From Okamejei kenojei (Eukaryota): a DNA stretch of 64,000 bases. The stretch's first letter is position 1. Each line of letters starts with the position of its first letter. Both the position numbers and the translations under genes were made by a program. Under the pieces are notes generated by a model. It ran no database searches. It had not been told where the DNA came from and saw only the letters and a program-made list of their open reading frames with translations. The stretch covers positions 29,264,001-29,328,000 of the forward strand of contig CM069141.1 in NCBI GenBank assembly GCA_035221665.1, read 5' to 3'. Shown piece by piece: positions 2,258-55,797 of the stretch.

Positions 2258-3179
2258 CACATCTTTGCAGTTTGAGGAACCATGCTGCTGTTATATTAAC
2301 TGCCGACTTGCCTTGCATTGCAAACTATCTTCTTGATTGTGACCTGCCTTGGGGCATCTTAGGGTCATGAAAATAGCTTATAAATGCAAAGTTCCTTTTG
2401 TTTATCCTTGGTGCCAGCAAATCCTTTGACAGACCATAATAACAATTCATAACTAGAGCAGTCTTGCCAAATCAGCAACCAATGTAGGTATCCAAGAGAC
2501 TGACTTTTTTTTTTTTACATACATAATGCTGGGCAGATCTCAAGCTGAAACCTCCAATAGAATAGAAATTGAACCAGAGTTCTGTATGATGTCTTAATCA
2601 GTGAGAAAGTACCAAAATTTGCTTTGAAATGTATCAATCAATTCAGCCTGTGTATTTATTATCTAAAAAGAAAATACACCAGGGCTTTGTTTAAATATTA
2701 ACTTCCCAAAATTGATTTTCTGATACATGAACAATGAAACTGGAAATATCATTACCTCTTGTGCAAAACCAGGAGCCGGGGATGCAAATACTTGCTGAAT
2801 GCTTTCAGTAACAATTGCTGGTCGCCTAAAGTTAATTCAATTTCACAAACATAAATTGAAGAGTACGGACACAAGAACATAAATTGAGCACGCAAAACAA
2901 ATCATCATTTTGTGCATGCAAGCCCATCGGTTGCACTACCGGATTGGAATTATGGCTTTTATGTCAATGAAGTTAATAAAAAAAGCATGTCCAGGGACTT
3001 CGAAGTGAAGAGTCTAAAGGCAGAGTGATGTTTGATGAAATTAAAAAAAGAAATATGATTTCAATTCTACTAAACCTTGCTTATTTTGACTGAGTTTTGA
3101 GATTTTCAGAAGATGAGTTATCCATAAGAGGTATGGAAGATGCAAGCGGCTGTTGCTTAGAGAGGGGAGCAATCAATAG

Positions 3180-4954: not shown

Positions 4955-5333
4955 TAACTGTGCAAATGTCTTAAACTGTTGCTGTGATCAATATTGCCCA
5001 TAATCAACCCTGGACCATTAGGAGGTCCATTCTTCGTATCCACATTCCCAGTTTTTTAATGTATGCAAAAAAAAAATGCATGGCCCTTTTTCCAACAATG
5101 TTTAACGCAAAGAATATGGAGAATCACAGCTATTAGAACAAATGCAGCTCTTACATATACCACACCTGCGTGCTTACATCAGATGCATATGGCATAATTC
5201 ACTCCACAAATCGAGGATTGGTATATTTTTGAAATGCTTCACTGAGGAAATATACTGCTGCACTGAGATAGAGCCTGAAGAGCTTGGAGAATCGACTTTT
5301 GAATGTGCTCTTGAAGGAAAACTGCCTTCCGAA

Positions 5334-6260
5334 ATGTCTACAAGAGCTAAGCCAGATAAGGCAGATAAGGAGAAAGACTTGGAGGACTTAAAGCAAATGG
5401 TAAGAGAACAGAAAGATGAAAAGGTGGACAGAACGCACATGGAAAAAATTATGAAAGATATGACAGATAAGCTAATGCTGAATACGAATACGGGCAATTT
5501 AAGTTATTGAGTCTGTGCAGGATTCGATCAACACCGTAAATAAAAGAATTGAAGATGTGAGAGTTGAACTATTGGAGCGAATGGACAAGGGGGAAGAAGA
5601 CACCAATAAGAAGTTTGTTGCAGTGCATGAGACTGTCGCCTCATATGTGAAAACAATGAAAGAGATGGAGTAAGAGGTGGGGCGAATGGCCGAGGATATG
5701 AAGAAAATGAAGACACAGCACGACCTCACTGCAAAACAGCTAGCAAAATGTTCGGATACGTGCCTAGACTTGGAAACTCGTTCGAGACGCTTTAATCTAA
5801 GGCTAGTAGGAGTACCCGAGGAAGCCGAGGGAGATAACACCTCGGGAGTTTGCTGCGGATCTAATTAAAGAAGCTCTCAATCTTCCTAACCTTCCGAAAA
5901 TTGAAGCGGCACATCGAATTCCGAGATTCAAACAAAAATCCCAAACAGGCTCAGAATACACACGTCAGATCATTGCGCATTTGCGCATGCGAGAATGCTC
6001 ATTTCTTACAACGATCAGCAAAAATCGTTTACAAATCCAGGAGAGTGCATATAAATATGCCTTAACCATCGTGGAAGAGAATAAGTAACTTGAAAAGCTG
6101 TACTGTATGGACACTCTTTACTATTTCAACATGAAATGTGTTCAACAGAAGATGGAACTCTTCCTGTGTTTAGACTCGACGGCTTATCGAGGAATGTTAA
6201 TTCAAGGACATACTGGGTTCCAAGTGAAGTGGAAAAAGATAAACACTGAATACAGAGCTT
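5334..6260 (+). pseudogene. L1 ORF1 (coiled-coil + RRM/Transposase_22-like), frameshifted
   Basis: Charged coiled-coil peptide followed by DLETRSRRFNLRLVGVPEEAEG and IEAAHRI motifs typical of L1 ORF1p. 3' end approximate. Confidence 0.8.
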
Positions 6261-6654
6261 TACAATATAATCTGAACAGAGCAATTACCGTGGTTTAAAA
6301 TGTTTAACTGAATAACCTAATGTTATAGAAATAACACTTTTAACACTTAAAACATAGAATACTATCATAGAAATTGTAATGAACATTAACCAGATCGGTA
6401 GTAAGGGGCTGATTTACAATCTAACATCTATAACTTAATATCTTAATAAGTTTTAAGCAGATTTATAACCGGGTTGTGAGGGGGATGTGGGCTCCTGGCT
6501 CAGATCCAGAAGCCTGCCCTAGGTAGCCCCTTCAACCAATAGCTGATAATTATCGAGGTAAAAACTGATGCTTAACATTCGGTTGATAAAACAGTTAGAT
6601 ATATTTTAGAATACATGTGAAATGGATATATGTACTGCAATTAGGTATTATATA

Positions 6655-8265
6655 CAGTGGCTTGCAAAAGTATTCATACCCCTTGAACATTTCCACATTT
6701 TGTCACGTTACAACCACAAACGTAAATGTATTTTATTGGGATTTTATGTGATAGACCAACACAAAGTGGTGCATAATTGTGAAGAGGAAGGAAAATGATA
6801 CATGGTTTCCAAATTTTATTACAAATAAAAAACTGAAAAGTGTGGCGTGCAAAAGTATTCAGCCCCCCTGAGTCAATACTTTGTAGAACCACCTTTCGCT
6901 GCAATTACAGCTGCAAGTCTTTTGGGGTATGTCTCTATCAGCTTTGTACATCTAGAGACTGAAATTTTGCCCATTCTTCTTTGCAAAATAGCTCAAGCTC
7001 AGTCAGATTGGATGGAGAGGGTCTGTGAACAGCAATTTTCAAGTCTTGCCAGAGATTCTCAATTGGATTTAGGTCTGGACTTTGACCGCGCCATTCTAAC
7101 ACATGAATATGCTTTGATCTAAACCATTCCATTGTTGCTCTGGCTGTATGTTTAGGGTTGTCGCCGTGCTGGAAGGTGAACCTCCGCCCCAGTCTCAAGT
7201 CTTTTGCAGACTCTAACAGGTTTTCTTCCAAGCTTGCCCTGTTTTTGGCTCCATCCATCTTCCCATCAACTCTGACCAGCTTACCTGTCCCTGCTGAAGA
7301 AAAACATCCCTACAGCATGATGCTGCCACCACCATGTTTCACAGTGGGGATGGTGTGTTCAGGGTGATGGGCAGTGTTAGTTTTCCACCACACATAGCAT
7401 TTTGCATTTAGGCCAAAACATTCAATTTTGGTCTCATCAGACCAGAGCACCTTCCTCCACATATTTGCTGTGTCCCCCACATGGCTTGTGGCAAACTGCA
7501 AACGGGACTTCTTATGGCTTTGTTTCAACAATGGCTTTCTTCTTGCCACTCTTCCATAAAGGCCCGATTTGTGGAGTGCACGACTAATAGTTGTCCTATG
7601 GACAAATTCTCCCACCTGAGCTGTGGATCTCTGCAGCTCCTCCAGAGTTACCATGGGCCTCTTGGCTGCTTCTCTGATCAATGCTCACCTTGCCTGGCCT
7701 GTCAGTTTAGGTGGACGACCATGTCTTGGTAGGTTTGCAGTTGTGCCATATTCTTTCCATTTTCAGATGATGGATTGAACAGTGCTCCGTGAGATGTTCA
7801 AAGCTTGGGATAGTTTTTTATAACCTAAACCTGCTTTAAACTTCTCCACAACTTTATCCCTGACCTGTCTGGTGTGTTCCTTGGGCTTCATGGCGCTGTT
7901 TGTTCACTAATGTTCTCTAACAAACCTCTGAGGCCTTCACAGAAGAGCTGCATTTATACTGAGATTAGATTACACACAAGTGGACTCTAATAATGAGGTG
8001 ACTTCTGAAGGCAATTGGTTGCAATGGATTTTATTTAGGGGTATCAGAATAAAGGGGGCTGAATACTTTTGCACACCACATTTTTCTGTTTTTATTTGTA
8101 AAAAAAATTGAAAACCATGCATCATTTTCCTTCCACTTCACAATTATGCACCACTTTGTGTTGGTCTATCATATAATATCCCAATAAAATACATTTACGT
8201 TTGTGGTTGTAACGTGACAAAATGTGGAAAAGTTCACGCGGTATGAATACTTTTGCAAGCCACTG
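6655..8265 (-). mobile_element. Tc1-family IR/DR DNA transposon, full length (1611 bp)
   Basis: ~213-bp TIRs starting CAGTGGCTTGCAAAAGTATTCA with an internal direct repeat TGCAAAAGTATTCA; TA TSD (6653-54 / 8266-67). Confidence 0.95.
6873..7891 (-). pseudogene. Tc1 DDE transposase with stops/frameshifts
   Basis: MKPKEHTRQVRDKVVEKFKAG…, WSDETK, TVKHGGGSIML, QSPDLNPIENLW, ending GSTKY*; split across several ORFs. Confidence 0.9.
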
Positions 8266-8606
8266 TAGTTGATTTGGAATCAGCTCGGTTCTAGTACGGA
8301 TATGTTATGACTTATTGAGGGAACGGAGCTATTTGTTTATTAACATCGACAACGGAAGTCGATACAATGTTTTCTCCCACCAACAGGTGGGCCACTTATT
8401 ACAGTGCCGATAAGCTTGGTCACTGTATTTTCACTTTTACTATTTTTTTTTTACTATCACAATTAATCACATGTGTGTTTTTTTTATTCAAGGATAATTG
8501 CAAAAGGAATCCACAAACTGAACTTGGTAGGTTGACTGTTCCCCCATTGCTTAAAGACCTGAGTTATGGATGCACCACAAGATACATAGGTCCTAAACCT
8601 AGTCAA

Positions 8607-11600
8607 AATGCAAGACACTAAACAAAATAAATCGTGAGGAATCTCATTTTGCACTTGGAATATTAGGGGGGCTAACGAACGTATTAAAAGGGGTAAGATT
8701 TTAGCACAGCTGAAAGCATTTAAGTCAGATGTTATCTTCCTCCAAGAAATGCATCTTAAAGTTCAAGATCAAGTTAGATTGAGGGCCAACTGGATAGTTC
8801 AAACTTTTCATTCGTCATTCACGTCAAAATCCAGAGGCACGTCCATCATGATTCGTAAAGGTATACCATTTAAACAGAAAAATACCTTAACAGATAAGGA
8901 TGGGAGATATTTGATAGTTACCGGTGAGGTCCATGCAATCCCAATCACATTGGTAAATATGTATGCGCCTAACTTTGATAATCCGCATTTTTTTAAATAA
9001 AATTTTGAATATAATTGAATTATAATTGGGGGAGACTTTAACTGTGTCTTAGATCCTTCTTTAGATAAATCCAGTCAAATACAACAAGGTAATACGAAAT
9101 CTAAAACTAGTGAACTTTTAAGCACATATATAAAAAATACAAATATAACCGATGTTTTGAGGATTGCAAATCCGACAGGCAAGGAATATTTGTTTTATTC
9201 AGCGGTACACAAGACTTACTCACGTATAGATTATTTCCTGGTAGACAAAAAATTAATTCCGTATACTCTTAACCCAAAATACCACACAAATACGATTTCA
9301 GATCATTCCCCCTTGACTTTAAAAAAAAAAAATAGAAGGCATGTCTAAGAATACATCGTTCTGGAGGTATAACCCCCAAATTTTAAAAGACCCGCAAAGG
9401 GAGTATATATCTAAGACAGCAAATTGATCTTTTTTTCGAAATAAATGATATGCCTGACACACCACCTACATGATCTTTCAAAGCTTTTATTAGAGGTGTT
9501 ATAATCTCATACCAAGCCTTTCAGAATAAAAAAAATAAGAATGAACAATGGCAGCTAGAGGAACAAATTAGACAATTGGATATAGATAATGCTAAAGACC
9601 CGTCCATGGATAAACACAATAAAATATTAATACTAAAATTCAAATTAAATAAATTACTATCAGAGAAAGTTATAAGATTATTCCAAATTACAAGACAGGA
9701 GCAGTTTGTATTTGGGGAGAAGCCTCGTAAACTTCTCGCACGCCAATTAAAAAAAACGAGAAAAGGAACACACGATTTCAAAGATTAAATCAGACAAAGG
9801 GGAAGTATTAACATTACCGAATGAAATTAATAAAAGATTTGTGCAATTTTATGAGAATTTGTATACATCCAAAATGACAACAGACACAATCACTGAGTTT
9901 CTGGATAATTGCAATCTTCCCAAACTAGAATTGCAGGAACAAGAGGAATTGGGAGCACAAATCTCAAATGAAATAGAAGAAACAATATTCTCATTAAAAA
10001 ATGGAAAAATACCAGGTCCCGACCGATTTAGTAATATGAATTTTATATAGAGCCCCTAGAGCTCTATATATAAAAGTTTTTACCAGAATATTAACTAATA
10101 ATATTTTATCCATGAAATTTCAACTGTCAAGAGGTAATAGACAAGGTTGTTCATTATCACCATTGTTATTTGCCCTCATAATTGAACCACTAGCAGAAAG
10201 TATCTGAATATCCACGGATATAAGACAAAATATTCAAACAATATAATATAATTATATGCTGATGATGTACTTTTGTACATCACAAAGCCTCATATCACTA
10301 TACCCAATATTTTAAATTTAATTGAGGATTTCGGTTCATTTTCAGGTTACAGAATAAACTGGAATAAAAGTGAAATCATGTCAATAAAACCGAGAGATTC
10401 TATACATTTCGAACAATTTCCTTTTAAAATAGTTGGGAAAAAATTTAAAATACTGGGCATTGAAATTACTAGAAGATATCAAACATGTTTAAAACGCAAA
10501 CTATAACCCTGTACTTAAGAAATACATAATTTAATTAAATTCTGGAAAACGCTCCCGATGTCCTTAATAGGTCGAATAAACGCCATAAAAATGATTTTTC
10601 TACAAATTCTATACTTGTTCCAATCAATCCCACTATATCTACCCAAAAAAGTTAAAAAAAAATTGGACTCAGATATTACAAATTTTTATTTGGGATTATA
10701 AGACCCATAGAATACAAAGACCCACACCTGAATAAACCCAAAGTAGTAGGGCGATTAGCACTTCCTAATTTTATGTATTATTATTGGTCAAAATATTAGA
10801 AATATGATTCAAGTGTTGGATAATGCTTCATCAACCGGAATGGATCATTATGGAAAAAGAGGACTGCTCCCCCTTTAATATTGGTGCGATCCTTTCTTTC
10901 ACCAATGACGGTGAATAATACAAACTACAACAAAAACCCAAATATATAGTATAATCAGAATTTTGGAAACAAATAAATACAATTTAAAATTAAGAAACTT
11001 ATCTCTCCTATCTCCTATCGCTAAAAAACCCTCTGTTTAAAAAAAAACCCTCGATTATAGACAAATCATTCATACAATGGGAAAGAGCAGGAATTAAAAC
11101 TTTGGGAGATTTGCATGATACGGGTAACTATTATCATTTAAACAATTACAACTAAAATACAATCTGGGTAACAATCAGTATTTAAATATTTCCAAATATG
11201 TGATTATTTGAAAAAAACATGCACATGAATTTCACATAATGCCATTAGACTTACTAGATGAAGTAATGAATACAAAGGCGGAATCACCAAATTTAATTTC
11301 ACATATATATAATATTATACTAAATACAGTAATACCAACAATGGAAGGTATTAGAGGTGAGTGGGAAAACGAACTAAGCATCAAAATTTCCAATGAAAGG
11401 TGGAAAGAATACTTATTAAATTTGCACAAATGCTCAATTAACGTAAGACACACTTTAATACAATTTAAAATTATATATAGATTATACTACTCAAAAACTA
11501 AATTAAATACATTTTTCCCTAACGTTTCACTGATTTGTGATAAATGCCACTGCCAAGAAGCTACAATAGCGCACTCATTCATCTCTTGTACAAAAAATCA

Positions 11601-45149: not shown

Positions 45150-45532
45150 TTAGTTTAGTTTAGTTTATTGTTACCTGTACCGAGGTACAGCGAAAAGCTC
45201 TTTGTCGCATGCTACCCCATCAGCGGAAAAACTGCGCGTTTACAATCAAACTGCCCACAGTGAACAGATACAGGATAAAGGGCTGCTGTTGGAGTAGAGG
45301 TGTAAGAGTGGAGTAACTCTACTGAATGATCACAGATCCACTCTGGGACCAGCACCCAGATTATGTTCTTGCATTGCAACAATGACTGTACTTCATATTG
45401 TATGTGAAGTAATCTTGCAAAGTTTTGAGTTTGTAAATCAATATTACTTATATCATTATTATGTATTCTTTCTGTTAATTAACCATTTAGCAATTCTTTT
45501 ACAGCTGCTTGACTTACTTTGGAGAAATGAAA

Positions 45533-46105
45533 ATGGCTTCTACTTCAGCTGTTGGTAATTTAAAAGAAGAATTAAATTGTTCAATTTGCTGGAATATATA
45601 CACCGAACCAGTTTCACTATCCTGTGGGCACAACTTTTGTCGTAGTTGTATTGAAAAGAACTGGGACAAAAAAGATACTGGGCCAGGGTATTCCTGCCCA
45701 GAGTGTCGTGCAGAGTATGCTCAGAAACCTATACTACACAAAAATTTGAAACTAAGTAACATAATAGAACGTTTTGAAGCCACCCAGATGAACGAAGAAC
45801 CACCTAAAATCTTCTGTGATTTCTGTTTGGATAGTCCTCTCCCTGCAGTGAAGACATGTATGAACTGTGAAGCCTCTTTATGTGAACATCACTTGAGGAA
45901 GCACTCTGAGAAAGCTGCTCAGAAAAACCACCTACTGATTGAGCCTGCAAGTTCACTGGAAGACAGAAAATGTTCTGATCATGAGAAACTAATTGAATAT
46001 TACTGCCTAGATGACCATTCCTGTATCTGTGTGACCTGCTATGTTGCTGGACCACATAAGAACCATGACATACGCATTTTAAAAGACATACACAATGAAA
46101 CAAAG
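45533..46105 (+). CDS. TRIM25/finTRIM-like E3 ligase, coding exon 1 (RING, B-box1, B-box2)
   Basis: LKEELNCSIC…LSCGHNFCRSC…YSCPECR; CDFC…AVKTCMNCEASLCEHH; CSDH…YC…CICVTC…HKNH. Acceptor ttttacag at 45504, ATG in AAAATGG context (alternative ATG 45527), donor AAG|GTGAGC, phase 0. Confidence 0.95.
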
Positions 46106-46232
46106 GTGAGCGATTTTGTACTCAAGTGGTAAAATTACGGATATGCCATATTGATTACAAGATATTTCGTTGCACACATTTTAATGTTTAGCAATACATT
46201 TTACCTTAACTGGTGCAGTGATCTTTTAATAG

Positions 46233-50450: not shown

Positions 50451-50755
50451 GTAATGGTAAATGGAAATTATATTTTTTATATCTCAAGGGTGAGAATATA
50501 AGGTACTAGAAGGTACTAGAAGTTATGGTTTTAGCAGTACAAAGCTATACAAAGCTTGAGTTTGAACACAACCATAGCACTGTGATCACTACTGGGCACT
50601 ACAGCTTTGGAAACATATATAAAGCTTGAATAATTACAGATGGTACGGGTCTCCAAATGTTAAGCAATGAAGATGTATTACACAAATTGAGGTTGGATTC
50701 CTTAGAATTTAACAAGTTAAGGTTTTCTCTCATTGAAGCTTTAAAGATATTCACT

Positions 50756-50893
50756 TCTTCTTCTTCTTGCGTATGGCGTGCACAGCCTAAAGTTGTAAAC
50801 TTGTTCTATTTTATCTTATTTGATTGTGCACGCCAGGTTGATTGCATTCATCAAAATAGGGCAGACCACGTGAAGGTTGCAATCTTTCACCCC
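50756..50893 (-). mobile_element. 138-bp non-autonomous non-LTR retroposon with (GAA)n tail
   Basis: 13-bp TSD AAAG(A/G)TATTCACT (50743-55 / 50894-906); 3' stem GGCGTGCACA…TGTGCACGCC; inserted in an old CR1 (~50480-51100). Confidence 0.85.
50840..50893 (-). ncRNA. HDV-like (delta-like) ribozyme fold, probably inactivated in this copy
   Basis: P1 GGGGTGA/CTGCCCT with G1-U wobble, P2 GATTGCA/TGCAATC, P3 ACC/GGT, L3 TTCACGT, J4/2 (C>T)GAA. Confidence 0.7.
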
Positions 50894-51108
50894 AAAGGTA
50901 TTCACTGATACTGAGGGAAAGAGATCAAAACAATTTCTACTCAATGAGGAGACTAGCATTAGGGGAGAGAGCCCAGAATTGAGACAGGCCTTTCAGTAGT
51001 GAAATATCTAACACTTTAAAATGTTAGCCACATAAAGTGATTGATGCTAATTCAATTATAAATGTCAAATCTGCACAAATCTGAGAGAAATGTTGTATTA
51101 AAGGATAT

Positions 51109-54210: not shown

Positions 54211-54829
54211 TCTATTATAGAGTAATTGATTCATAGATTCATAGCATGGATGTTCACTAAGCACCCATGTACAGTGACCCTACACTAGTCCCACTATATT
54301 CTCCTCACATTGTCCTCACATTCTCATCAAACCCCTTTCCCCAGAAGCTTTTTACTAATCTACAAATTAGAGCAATTCCCAGTGTCAAGTTAACATGCCA
54401 GCCATGTGTTGGCATTGAAAACCAGCCAACTGAAATTGTTACAAGGAAGGTGATGAAGAAGTATTGATTTAAATTGATTTAAATTCCAGGTAAATCAGAT
54501 TAAGTTACATTAAGGGTCTCAAGGGGGACTAAATGGTATTTTTTTGATTTGATGTCCCTTTATTCTCATATGCTAATTGGAGAACCTTTGTCTGAAATAG
54601 CTGGAGTATTTTCATTTCAATTTATTTTATGCACATAGAAGAATTCTGGTAAATGTACTTAAAAAGTGCATAAATATTATCTTTTATAATTAGGTTTAAT
54701 GACCATTAGACCTATGTTTTTACAATGCAGGCATTAATCCATGTAATTAAACCTTACTTTAAATTGCAAAGCTTCCAGTGCCTGTTATTTTGTTCCTACA
54801 TGTGAATTGGATTTTTTTTATTTTTACAG

Positions 54830-55063
54830 AAAGACAGTGCTATTTTGAGGAAACAAATTTCAGACTTGTTTCAAGAAATTAGAATGCTATTAACAAAGCA
54901 AGAAAAGCAAATCTTGGACACAGTTATAACAGAGAAAAACATAAACCTTTCAAAAGTCTTGAAGAAAATACAAGAATTAGAAATTAAAAGAGAAGTTATT
55001 ACTCATCTTATTCAGGAAGTCCAAGACCTGAAAAATCAGAAAGACCCGCTGTTCTTTATTAAG
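54830..55063 (+). CDS. TRIM coding exon 3 (234 bp, coiled-coil)
   Basis: ttttacag|AAAGAC…ATTAAG|gtaaaa; KDSAILRKQISDLFQEIRMLLTKQEKQIL…QKDPLFFIK. Confidence 0.92.
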
Positions 55064-55797
55064 GTAAAAAAGGACTTTAATCATTTTGATATATAACATG
55101 TCAAAAATGCCTTATGAACTGTACTGTTTTTAAGATTATAAAGTCATAGAAAGATATAGCATGAAAATGGGCCCTTCAGCCCACTAAGCCTGCTCTGACC
55201 ACCAACCATCCATTTACATTATCCCTACACTAATCCCATTGTATTCTCTCCACATTCTCAAGAGTTTGACACGGGTTGATTAACCAAGAATGCCATAAAA
55301 TAAATCAGAGTTCAGCTGAATGTATTGATGCCTTTATGAAGTTTAACTTTGAGTAAACCTGCCTTCCCTTCTTTTACTTTTCCTGAAATCTCCAAAATGG
55401 TAAAATCCAAATTTGATACAGCTTATTCCCTACTGTCTAATTTACCTGCCTTTTTTTCCCACTTTTGGTAACATACTCGCTTTCATATGTAAAAATATAT
55501 AACTCATTGTGCATCATCTTGTCGGAAGTGGCACAAATGGAACAAGCTTGTTCAAAATGGCTAATTAGAGTTTTGTAATATTTCTAATAAGGCAATGTTA
55601 TGCGTTAGTTTGGACATTTATGCTTTTTAAGATTGTGCACTGCTGTGTTTGAAGGAGGAGAGTTTGTTTGCATGGAGGATGGTGTTGGTGAGACGGTGTA
55701 CATATATCATGTTGGATAAACCAATTGATCTTCTGCAAAGAGGTACACAATCCTACAGAAAGAGAAAAGGATATAGAAAAGCAAACTTGTATGCTGT

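Follow-up and report, generated by a model that had tools for sequence, protein, structure and literature searches.

A dispersed, internally deleted LINE derivative in Okamejei kenojei with a predicted HDV-like ribozyme lacking P4 at its 5' end

Internally deleted derivatives of LINEs are an already known class of retroposons, to which SIDE, RIME, NARTc and Vingi-N belong. R2 SIDEs are described as about 0.5 kb long, rare and confined to the 28S rDNA (Eickbush and Eickbush 2012, PMC3414825). [quoted passage not shown] Ribozyme-headed internally deleted LINEs also include the trypanosomatid NARTc, RIME and SIDER with the Pr77 ribozyme (PMC4035085), but their hosts are protists and Pr77 is described there as having a P4 helix and promoter activity. 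A further likeness is seen in the hedgehog, where many internal-deletion families are described as coming from one Vingi LINE, Vingi-1_EE (PMC5786205).

As for the ribozyme itself, minimal HDV-like or theta ribozymes are described as nested double pseudoknots without P4 and with the catalytic C first in J4/2 (PMC10879173), which is also the form predicted here. According to the same source they come from metagenomes and phages, nearly 99% of them in Caudoviricetes, with the theta forms adjoining tRNAs, whereas the form in the present family heads a vertebrate retroposon. The mammalian CPEB3 ribozyme (RF00622) has the same L3 heptamer, the same CCCUGU after P3' and the same core numbering as the present family, but it is a single-copy, intronic, sense-strand ribozyme with P4 that is conserved by selection, and it has been reported as absent outside mammals.

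The window, that is, the whole stretch of DNA analysed, comprises 64,000 nucleotides of Okamejei kenojei (contig CM069141.1, positions 29,264,001 to 29,328,000). On its minus strand a retroposon whose 5' end is an HDV-like ribozyme had been predicted from the letters alone. P1, P2, P3, L3, the target-site duplication (TSD) and the tail were all found where they had been placed, and the retroposon is real, with thousands of family copies and no match to the reversed control patterns. Its features are as follows, element positions being counted from G1 (50893).

50756..50893, minus strand: whole element, by alignments a decayed subfamily A copy of a non-autonomous, internally deleted LINE derivative
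50840..50893, minus strand: predicted HDV-like ribozyme without P4, 54 nt, predicted to be inactive in this copy
50893-50887 with 50864-50858, minus strand: P1 (element positions 1-7 with 30-36)
50886-50885, minus strand: J1/2 of the ribozyme
50884-50878 with 50846-50840, minus strand: P2 (positions 10-16 with 48-54)
50877-50875 with 50867-50865, minus strand: P3 (positions 17-19 with 27-29)
50874-50868, minus strand: L3 of the ribozyme, 7 nt
50857, minus strand: P1.1 position 37, A in this copy and G in the family
50850-50847, minus strand: J4/2 (positions 44-47), with the catalytic position 50850 being T in this copy and C in the family
50845..50847, minus strand: AUG formed by the last J4/2 base and the first two of P2' (positions 47-49), from translations of LINE copies L268, L269 and L271
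50817..50893, minus strand: part derived from the LINE 5' end (positions 1-77), by alignment to LINE copy L268
50825..50835, minus strand: 5' arm of an 11-bp end-pairing helix, from the LINE 5' end directly after the ribozyme
50757..50797, minus strand: part derived from the LINE 3' end (last codons, stop, short 3' UTR and tail), by alignment to LINE copy L266
50789-50787, minus strand: LINE-derived ORF stop codon within that 3' part
50774..50784, minus strand: 3' arm of the end-pairing helix, from the LINE 3' UTR
50754..50775, minus strand: CATACGC motif and (AAG)n tail, the last two bases overlapping the downstream TSD
50894..50906, minus strand: upstream TSD of 13 bp, by comparison of the flanks
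50743..50755, minus strand: downstream TSD, by comparison of the flanks
45530..46129, plus strand: TRIM gene RING/B-box exon, by Pfam match
near 54806-55093, plus strand: putative TRIM coiled-coil exon, without Pfam match

The TSD has the predicted length of 13 bp, with one mismatch within it (12/13). The window copy is 138 nt long against 141-142 nt in most of its closest matches, and is 92-94% identical to the best 39 other copies. Seven of seven P2 pairs and three of three P3 pairs are formed in it, while P1 consists of a G-U, three G-C, a U-G and a G-U pair and one A x C mismatch. Its ribozyme differs from the family majority at six positions (7, 8, 31, 37, 41 and 44), among them the P1 mismatch, the loss of the P1.1 pair (positions 22-37) and the T at the catalytic position, which the original prediction had already recognised; its reading of the T as CpG decay is in line with a ribozyme divergence of 8.8% at CpG sites against 4.7% at non-CpG sites. 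The copy fails a strict HDV descriptor and gives no ribozyme match in an Rfam scan, and it misfolds in its minimum-energy structure, whereas P1 and P3 form as required in two intact family copies. Because C44, G37 and one P1 pair are lost, the ribozyme of the window copy is likely inert, and exaptation of this copy was rejected, as it is among the more damaged ones of the family. The element lies on the opposite strand to the TRIM gene and between the RING/B-box exon and the putative coiled-coil exon, so it is probably antisense in a TRIM intron, as had been proposed.

The family is dispersed over many contigs. In the 2.76-Gb genome there are 2,111 candidates for the whole element; a 22-nt 3' pattern is matched exactly at 3,125 sites and a 35-nt ribozyme core at 5,243, and both reversed controls gave 0. 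Among the first 70 of the 3,125 3'-pattern matches in contig order, a sample of which one member served as reference, 9 also match the ribozyme core exactly. A rough estimate from these sequences would put the family at about 41,000 copies, that is, tens of thousands, on the assumption of equal decay across all subfamilies. In the same sample, chosen by the 3' end alone, 61 copies start at positions 1-5 and 9 are truncated. The expected pile-up of 5' ends at G1 is therefore present, but it is no proof of cleavage, because many elements as short as 140 nt will be complete regardless of how their 5' end arises. Exact TSDs of 8-15 bp were found in 72 of 109 copies with both ends, of which 31 abut G1, 19 overlap it and 22 leave 1-4 extra bases, and the flanks of the copies are otherwise unrelated target sites. 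Thus the unit has been amplified with the marks of target-primed reverse transcription, namely TSDs, a simple-repeat tail and some 5' truncation. A side observation is that T stands 5' of G1 in 63 of the 109 copies against a background of 28%, mostly as the last base of the TSD, which may mean either that such targets are preferred or that a non-templated A anneals there. Assembled contigs from four organisms cover the element with the same boundaries, as a record of presence only.

The original prediction regarded the family as a ribozyme head combined with a LINE 3' recognition tail, and expected a LINE common to both ends. Such a LINE was found, with a length of about 3.1 kb, a single ORF and the same 5' ribozyme and 3' tail as the short element. 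The window copy aligns at positions 1-77 to the LINE 5' end and at positions 97-137 to the LINE 3' end. Both predicted parts are present, but the element, with 77 nt of LINE 5' sequence and 41 nt of LINE 3' sequence, is an internally deleted LINE rather than a head grafted on a tail. On these alignments the window element is one of at least four junction types of such derivatives, and the family is a non-autonomous LINE derivative of the SIDE type, made of the two ends of a LINE found in the same genome. Sorted by eye, 30 loci with LINE-type 5' sequence comprise three deletion types (8 + 7 + 9) and 6 LINE bodies. The four junction types all keep the ribozyme, the 5' arm and the 3' end, every short type retains 20-35 nt past the ribozyme, and a fifth, very common subfamily is also present. 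A Pol III SINE was rejected, as the head is the LINE's own 5' end, a simple regular expression finds no A or B box in the window copy, in agreement with the absence of visible pol III boxes noted before, and there is no such Rfam match. R2 SIDE identity was also ruled out, for the family is dispersed and not in 28S rDNA, and its partner has an APE and not a restriction-like endonuclease.

All LINE copies examined in the genome are broken, several of them with 5' inversions. The inverted 5' segments, which often contain the ribozyme (L151, L189, L198, L215, L226, L267, L273 and L277-L280), resemble twin-priming insertions. In addition, short elements sit inside copies of their own parent LINE (L199 near 2060 and L266 near 500, in strand-oriented coordinates).

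A 10-bp stem-loop had been described after the ribozyme. The inverted repeat is there, but it is 11 bp long in the window copy (50835-50825 / 50784-50774; fold z = -3.68, 0/200 shuffles), and a pure 3'-UTR hairpin was rejected because the 5' arm originates at the LINE 5' end, where 3 kb separate it from the 3' arm. In the LINE, the 5' arm lies directly after the ribozyme and the 3' arm directly after the stop codon. Among 120 short copies, 111 retain the 5' arm. Position 61, which is A in LINE-like types, is G in 59 of 63 copies of the window's subfamily, turning a mismatch into a G-C pair. When 30-nt windows of five families were compared in a matrix, stability was highest for the cognate pair in 5/5 columns and 4/5 rows. 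Compared with shuffles, the pairing is strong in family F4 (0/300) and in a metagenome family (1/300) and moderate in the window family (7/300), while it is not significant in F2 (41/300) and F3 (61/300). For four metagenome copies belonging to one family, none of the body windows equals the 5' end in pairing with the 3' UTR (0 of 264-313), whereas in three of four decayed copies of the genome's own LINE the end-pairing is no better than that of body windows. Related LINEs thus appear to have similar end-pairing with different sequence, strong in two of the five families, and we lean, with some reserve, to a functional helix.

We regard it as likely that the family is an internal-deletion retroposon of the 3.1-kb LINE, whose intact relatives cut themselves out of read-through RNA and are then copied by the LINE protein. 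A host transcript would read through a copy on its sense strand, and the 54-nt ribozyme is predicted to cut 5' of G1. The 5' arm after the ribozyme would then pair with the 3' UTR and join the two ends, as it would over 3 kb in the LINE. The LINE protein, if non-LTR biology is a guide, would bind the CATACGC(AAG)n end and insert the RNA by target-primed reverse transcription. The outcome is the copies with TSDs of 8-15 bp, which mostly start at G1.

The main rival is an internal Pol II promoter. According to this explanation the first 77 nt or so are both ribozyme and promoter, as in Pr77, and cleavage only trims or rescues read-through RNA. Pr77 of L1Tc/NARTc, from the sister Ingi clade, is described as having promoter as well as ribozyme activity (PMC4035085), and bipartite LINEs are expected, in the account of Kojima (2018), to be transcribed by Pol II from their 5' ends. 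The 20-35 nt kept past the ribozyme could be promoter, but end-pairing would also explain them. Furthermore, a capped transcript might leave an extra G at the 5' junction, provided that the enzyme copies the cap, and none of the 11 single extra bases, a small sample, is G. We therefore hold a promoter of this kind to be unlikely, though it is the strongest of the alternatives.

Release by self-cleavage from host transcripts would depend on an intact ribozyme, and the family majority letters do give a 7-bp P1 from G1, a 3-bp P3 and a 7-nt L3 with U20 and G25. As had been predicted for a consensus, they also show the catalytic C, the G after P1' and a fully paired P1. The catalytic C is first in J4/2 (C-N-R-A); the predicted CGAA occurs there in the window's subfamily, while the LINE and the commonest subfamily have CUAA, which is also found in 70 of the first 100 exact core matches with C. 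Subfamily differences fall at tolerated positions, that is, 32 (A or G opposite U5), 45 and 8. In the 61 full-length copies C44 is kept in 52 and G37 in 60, all of P1 is paired in 34, all seven P2 pairs in 37 and all of P3 in 46, and 12 pass the full set of structural checks. The 72 cores that lack C44 in the -UAA context are scattered and stand against 5,243 cores with C; among the lineages sampled no amplified one lacks C44. The strict HDV descriptor passes 18 of 70 family copies and has 0 matches in 404,560 nt of unrelated LINE loci; on these grounds, together with the copy number and the reversed controls, a chance fold was rejected. In an Rfam scan of 15 family loci none reached a curated cut-off and there was one weak match to RF02682, a model that includes P4; family copies score 16-20 bits against its cut-off of 44, and one intact copy aligns to it exactly from G1 to C54 with 16 bits. 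Intact family ribozymes are predicted to cleave themselves 5' of G1.

The ribozyme is 54 nt in total and the "minimal P4" of the original prediction does not exist, as only 6 nt lie between G37 and C44. This opens a second rival explanation, in which the fold is a non-cleaving vestige kept for protein binding or translation initiation and the G1 end is set by the transcription start or by protein processing. P4 is indeed present in all related families parsed and missing in the window family, and the catalytic C could be sequestered if G37-U38 paired with A43-C44, leaving UUCG as the loop. Moreover, the first AUG in frame with the LINE endonuclease ORF (positions 47-49) overlaps J4/2 and P2', that is, the catalytic strand of the ribozyme, which would conserve those bases anyway. 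C44, however, lies upstream of the AUG and is nonetheless retained by all the amplified lineages sampled, intact copies form the required P1 and P3 in their minimum-energy fold, and HDV-like ribozymes without P4 are described as cleaving in vitro (PMC10879173). A vestige is accordingly considered very improbable. Theta ribozyme identity was ruled out as well, since the flanks are target sites with TSDs and not a phage tRNA 3' end.

The partner LINE was found by a pattern in which the TAG of the element was taken as the ORF stop after W-x4-D-L-x-L. The pattern gave 298 matches against 1 in the control, and these are LINE 3' ends with a C-terminal zinc knuckle and the same tail; we take this ending and the zinc knuckle to fit Vingi. 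In Pfam searches LINE pieces match reverse transcriptase and endonuclease, the latter above the cut-off for PF14529, and P0001, the closest homolog that is intact, has one ORF of 1,019 aa, is 75% identical and gives no RNase H match. The partner LINE thus has APE and RT but no RNase H in a compact single ORF, which is how Vingi is defined in PMC13708176. Its length is near that given for the gharial Vingi-2_Gav (3,128 nt), whose 5' end, in the supplement of PMC5786205, shares the L3 heptamer and the CCCUGU motif. The partner LINE therefore probably belongs to the Vingi clade, an assignment made from architecture rather than from a tree with named references. Of the 120 homologs listed, not one bears the name of a clade, and no Vingi chain was matched in the PDB. 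An RTE-type or other partner, which would leave the mechanism unchanged, has in its favour that RTE elements are likewise described as single-ORF APE LINEs with bipartite derivatives and ribozymes, but the PF14529 match, the length, the shared 5' motifs and the presumably Vingi-like C-terminus make it the most improbable of the alternatives. Vingi elements were once named Ingi, and earlier "Ingi" ribozymes may include some Vingi ones. A search of the genome with PF14529 gave a two-ORF Nimb-like LINE and CR1-like LINEs. The Nimb-like LINE is abundant and has an (AAG)n end (L101-L130, L135, L139 and L146; one 1,276-aa open frame in L112); it was rejected as the partner, for the (AAG)n end is alike but neither end is otherwise common to both.

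A protein search also revealed four more related Vingi-like LINE families (F2-F5) in the same genome (L455-L474). [quoted passage not shown] The strict descriptor passes 4/8 loci of F2, 1/6 of F3, 0/5 of F4 and 0/1 of F5; all the matches (5/20 loci) are at 5' ends in sense and none is antisense. The 5' end of F4 is HDV-like by eye, with a bulged P2, and in F2 the P1.1 pair is U22-A37 in place of C22-G37. The P4 inserts are 78-89 nt long in F2, F3 and the metagenome relative L295, while the window family has none. An Rfam scan of 7 sister-family loci gave none at the curated cut-off and nothing for F2-F4.

Among metagenome relatives, a descriptor search gave three matches in 84 loci. The best Rfam match of such a relative is the CPEB3 model RF00622 with 25.2 bits; relatives score 22-25 bits against the cut-off of 35 of this model, which includes P4. 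In an alignment of the three metagenome relatives, six family copies and the window copy, 93.8% of cells are paired (0/500 shuffles as good) and 8/18 pairs have double-sided changes (1/500 shuffles; slid controls 1-3 pairs), although these scores are inflated by relatedness and two rows are partly misaligned (P1 of L346 and P2' of L295). In P2, double-sided changes occur in 4/7 pairs across relatives. A CATACG-like motif stands before the microsatellite tail in family F2 and in distant relatives with different tails (L282, L283, L286, L301, L306, L322 and L342), and is a possible signal for recognition of the 3' end.

The 5' end of gharial Vingi-2_Gav, taken as positions 2-74 printed in the supplement of PMC5786205, matches the RF00622 consensus by eye at 46/48 core positions, that is, 35/37 through P1.1 and 11/11 at J4/2-P2', while P4 differs. 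This likeness of sequence suggests that the CPEB3 ribozyme is an exapted Vingi 5' end. A Vingi 5' end nearly identical to the CPEB3 core would give the CPEB3 ribozyme a testable origin, and no paper linking the two was found in the literature searched.

What goes beyond the original prediction is the lack of P4 in a 54-nt ribozyme, the helix joining the LINE ends and the LINE AUG in the catalytic strand. No account of the family or of its features was found in the parts of the literature consulted, which also covered PMC5753468, PMC10919898, PMC7761336, PMC3391268, PMC8233481 and a 2026 preprint; Repbase, Dfam and patents lay outside the search, and a prior mention is possible. Within the same scope there was no dispersed, high-copy vertebrate case with a ribozyme lacking P4, nor was long-range UTR pairing of this kind found. 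If the reading is true, minimal HDV-like ribozymes, reported almost only from phages, exist at very high copy number in a vertebrate. The window copy is likely dead, yet the family is a good test bed and would offer a direct test of whether intronic self-cleavers are purged in the sense orientation. In addition, comparison of the four natural deletion types narrows the cis signals that a Vingi-like LINE minimally needs to about 112 nt. If the ends do pair, Kojima's question, why bipartite derivatives arise in so few clades of LINEs, would have an answer. Vingi is described as under development for RNA-based gene insertion, where UTR design matters.

A wider proposal may be put forward tentatively, and we do not yet favour it. 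The Vingi-type clade would carry a 5' HDV-like ribozyme and an end-joining helix, so that any small deletion that keeps the ends could found a mobile family. The 54-nt version without P4 would have seeded tens of thousands of copies, thousands of them still able to cut host transcripts, and the 5' end of the clade would be the source of the CPEB3 ribozyme.

Finally, viral contigs gave no relative, and GTDB contigs gave only non-LTR retrotransposon fragments (L358-L404), which in prokaryotic genome bins are most likely eukaryotic contamination. The 64-kb window also holds what we take, from translated motifs, to be CR1-like copies, an L1-like copy at about 5100-11600 on the plus strand and a Tc1-like transposase remnant at about 6940-7690 on the minus strand.
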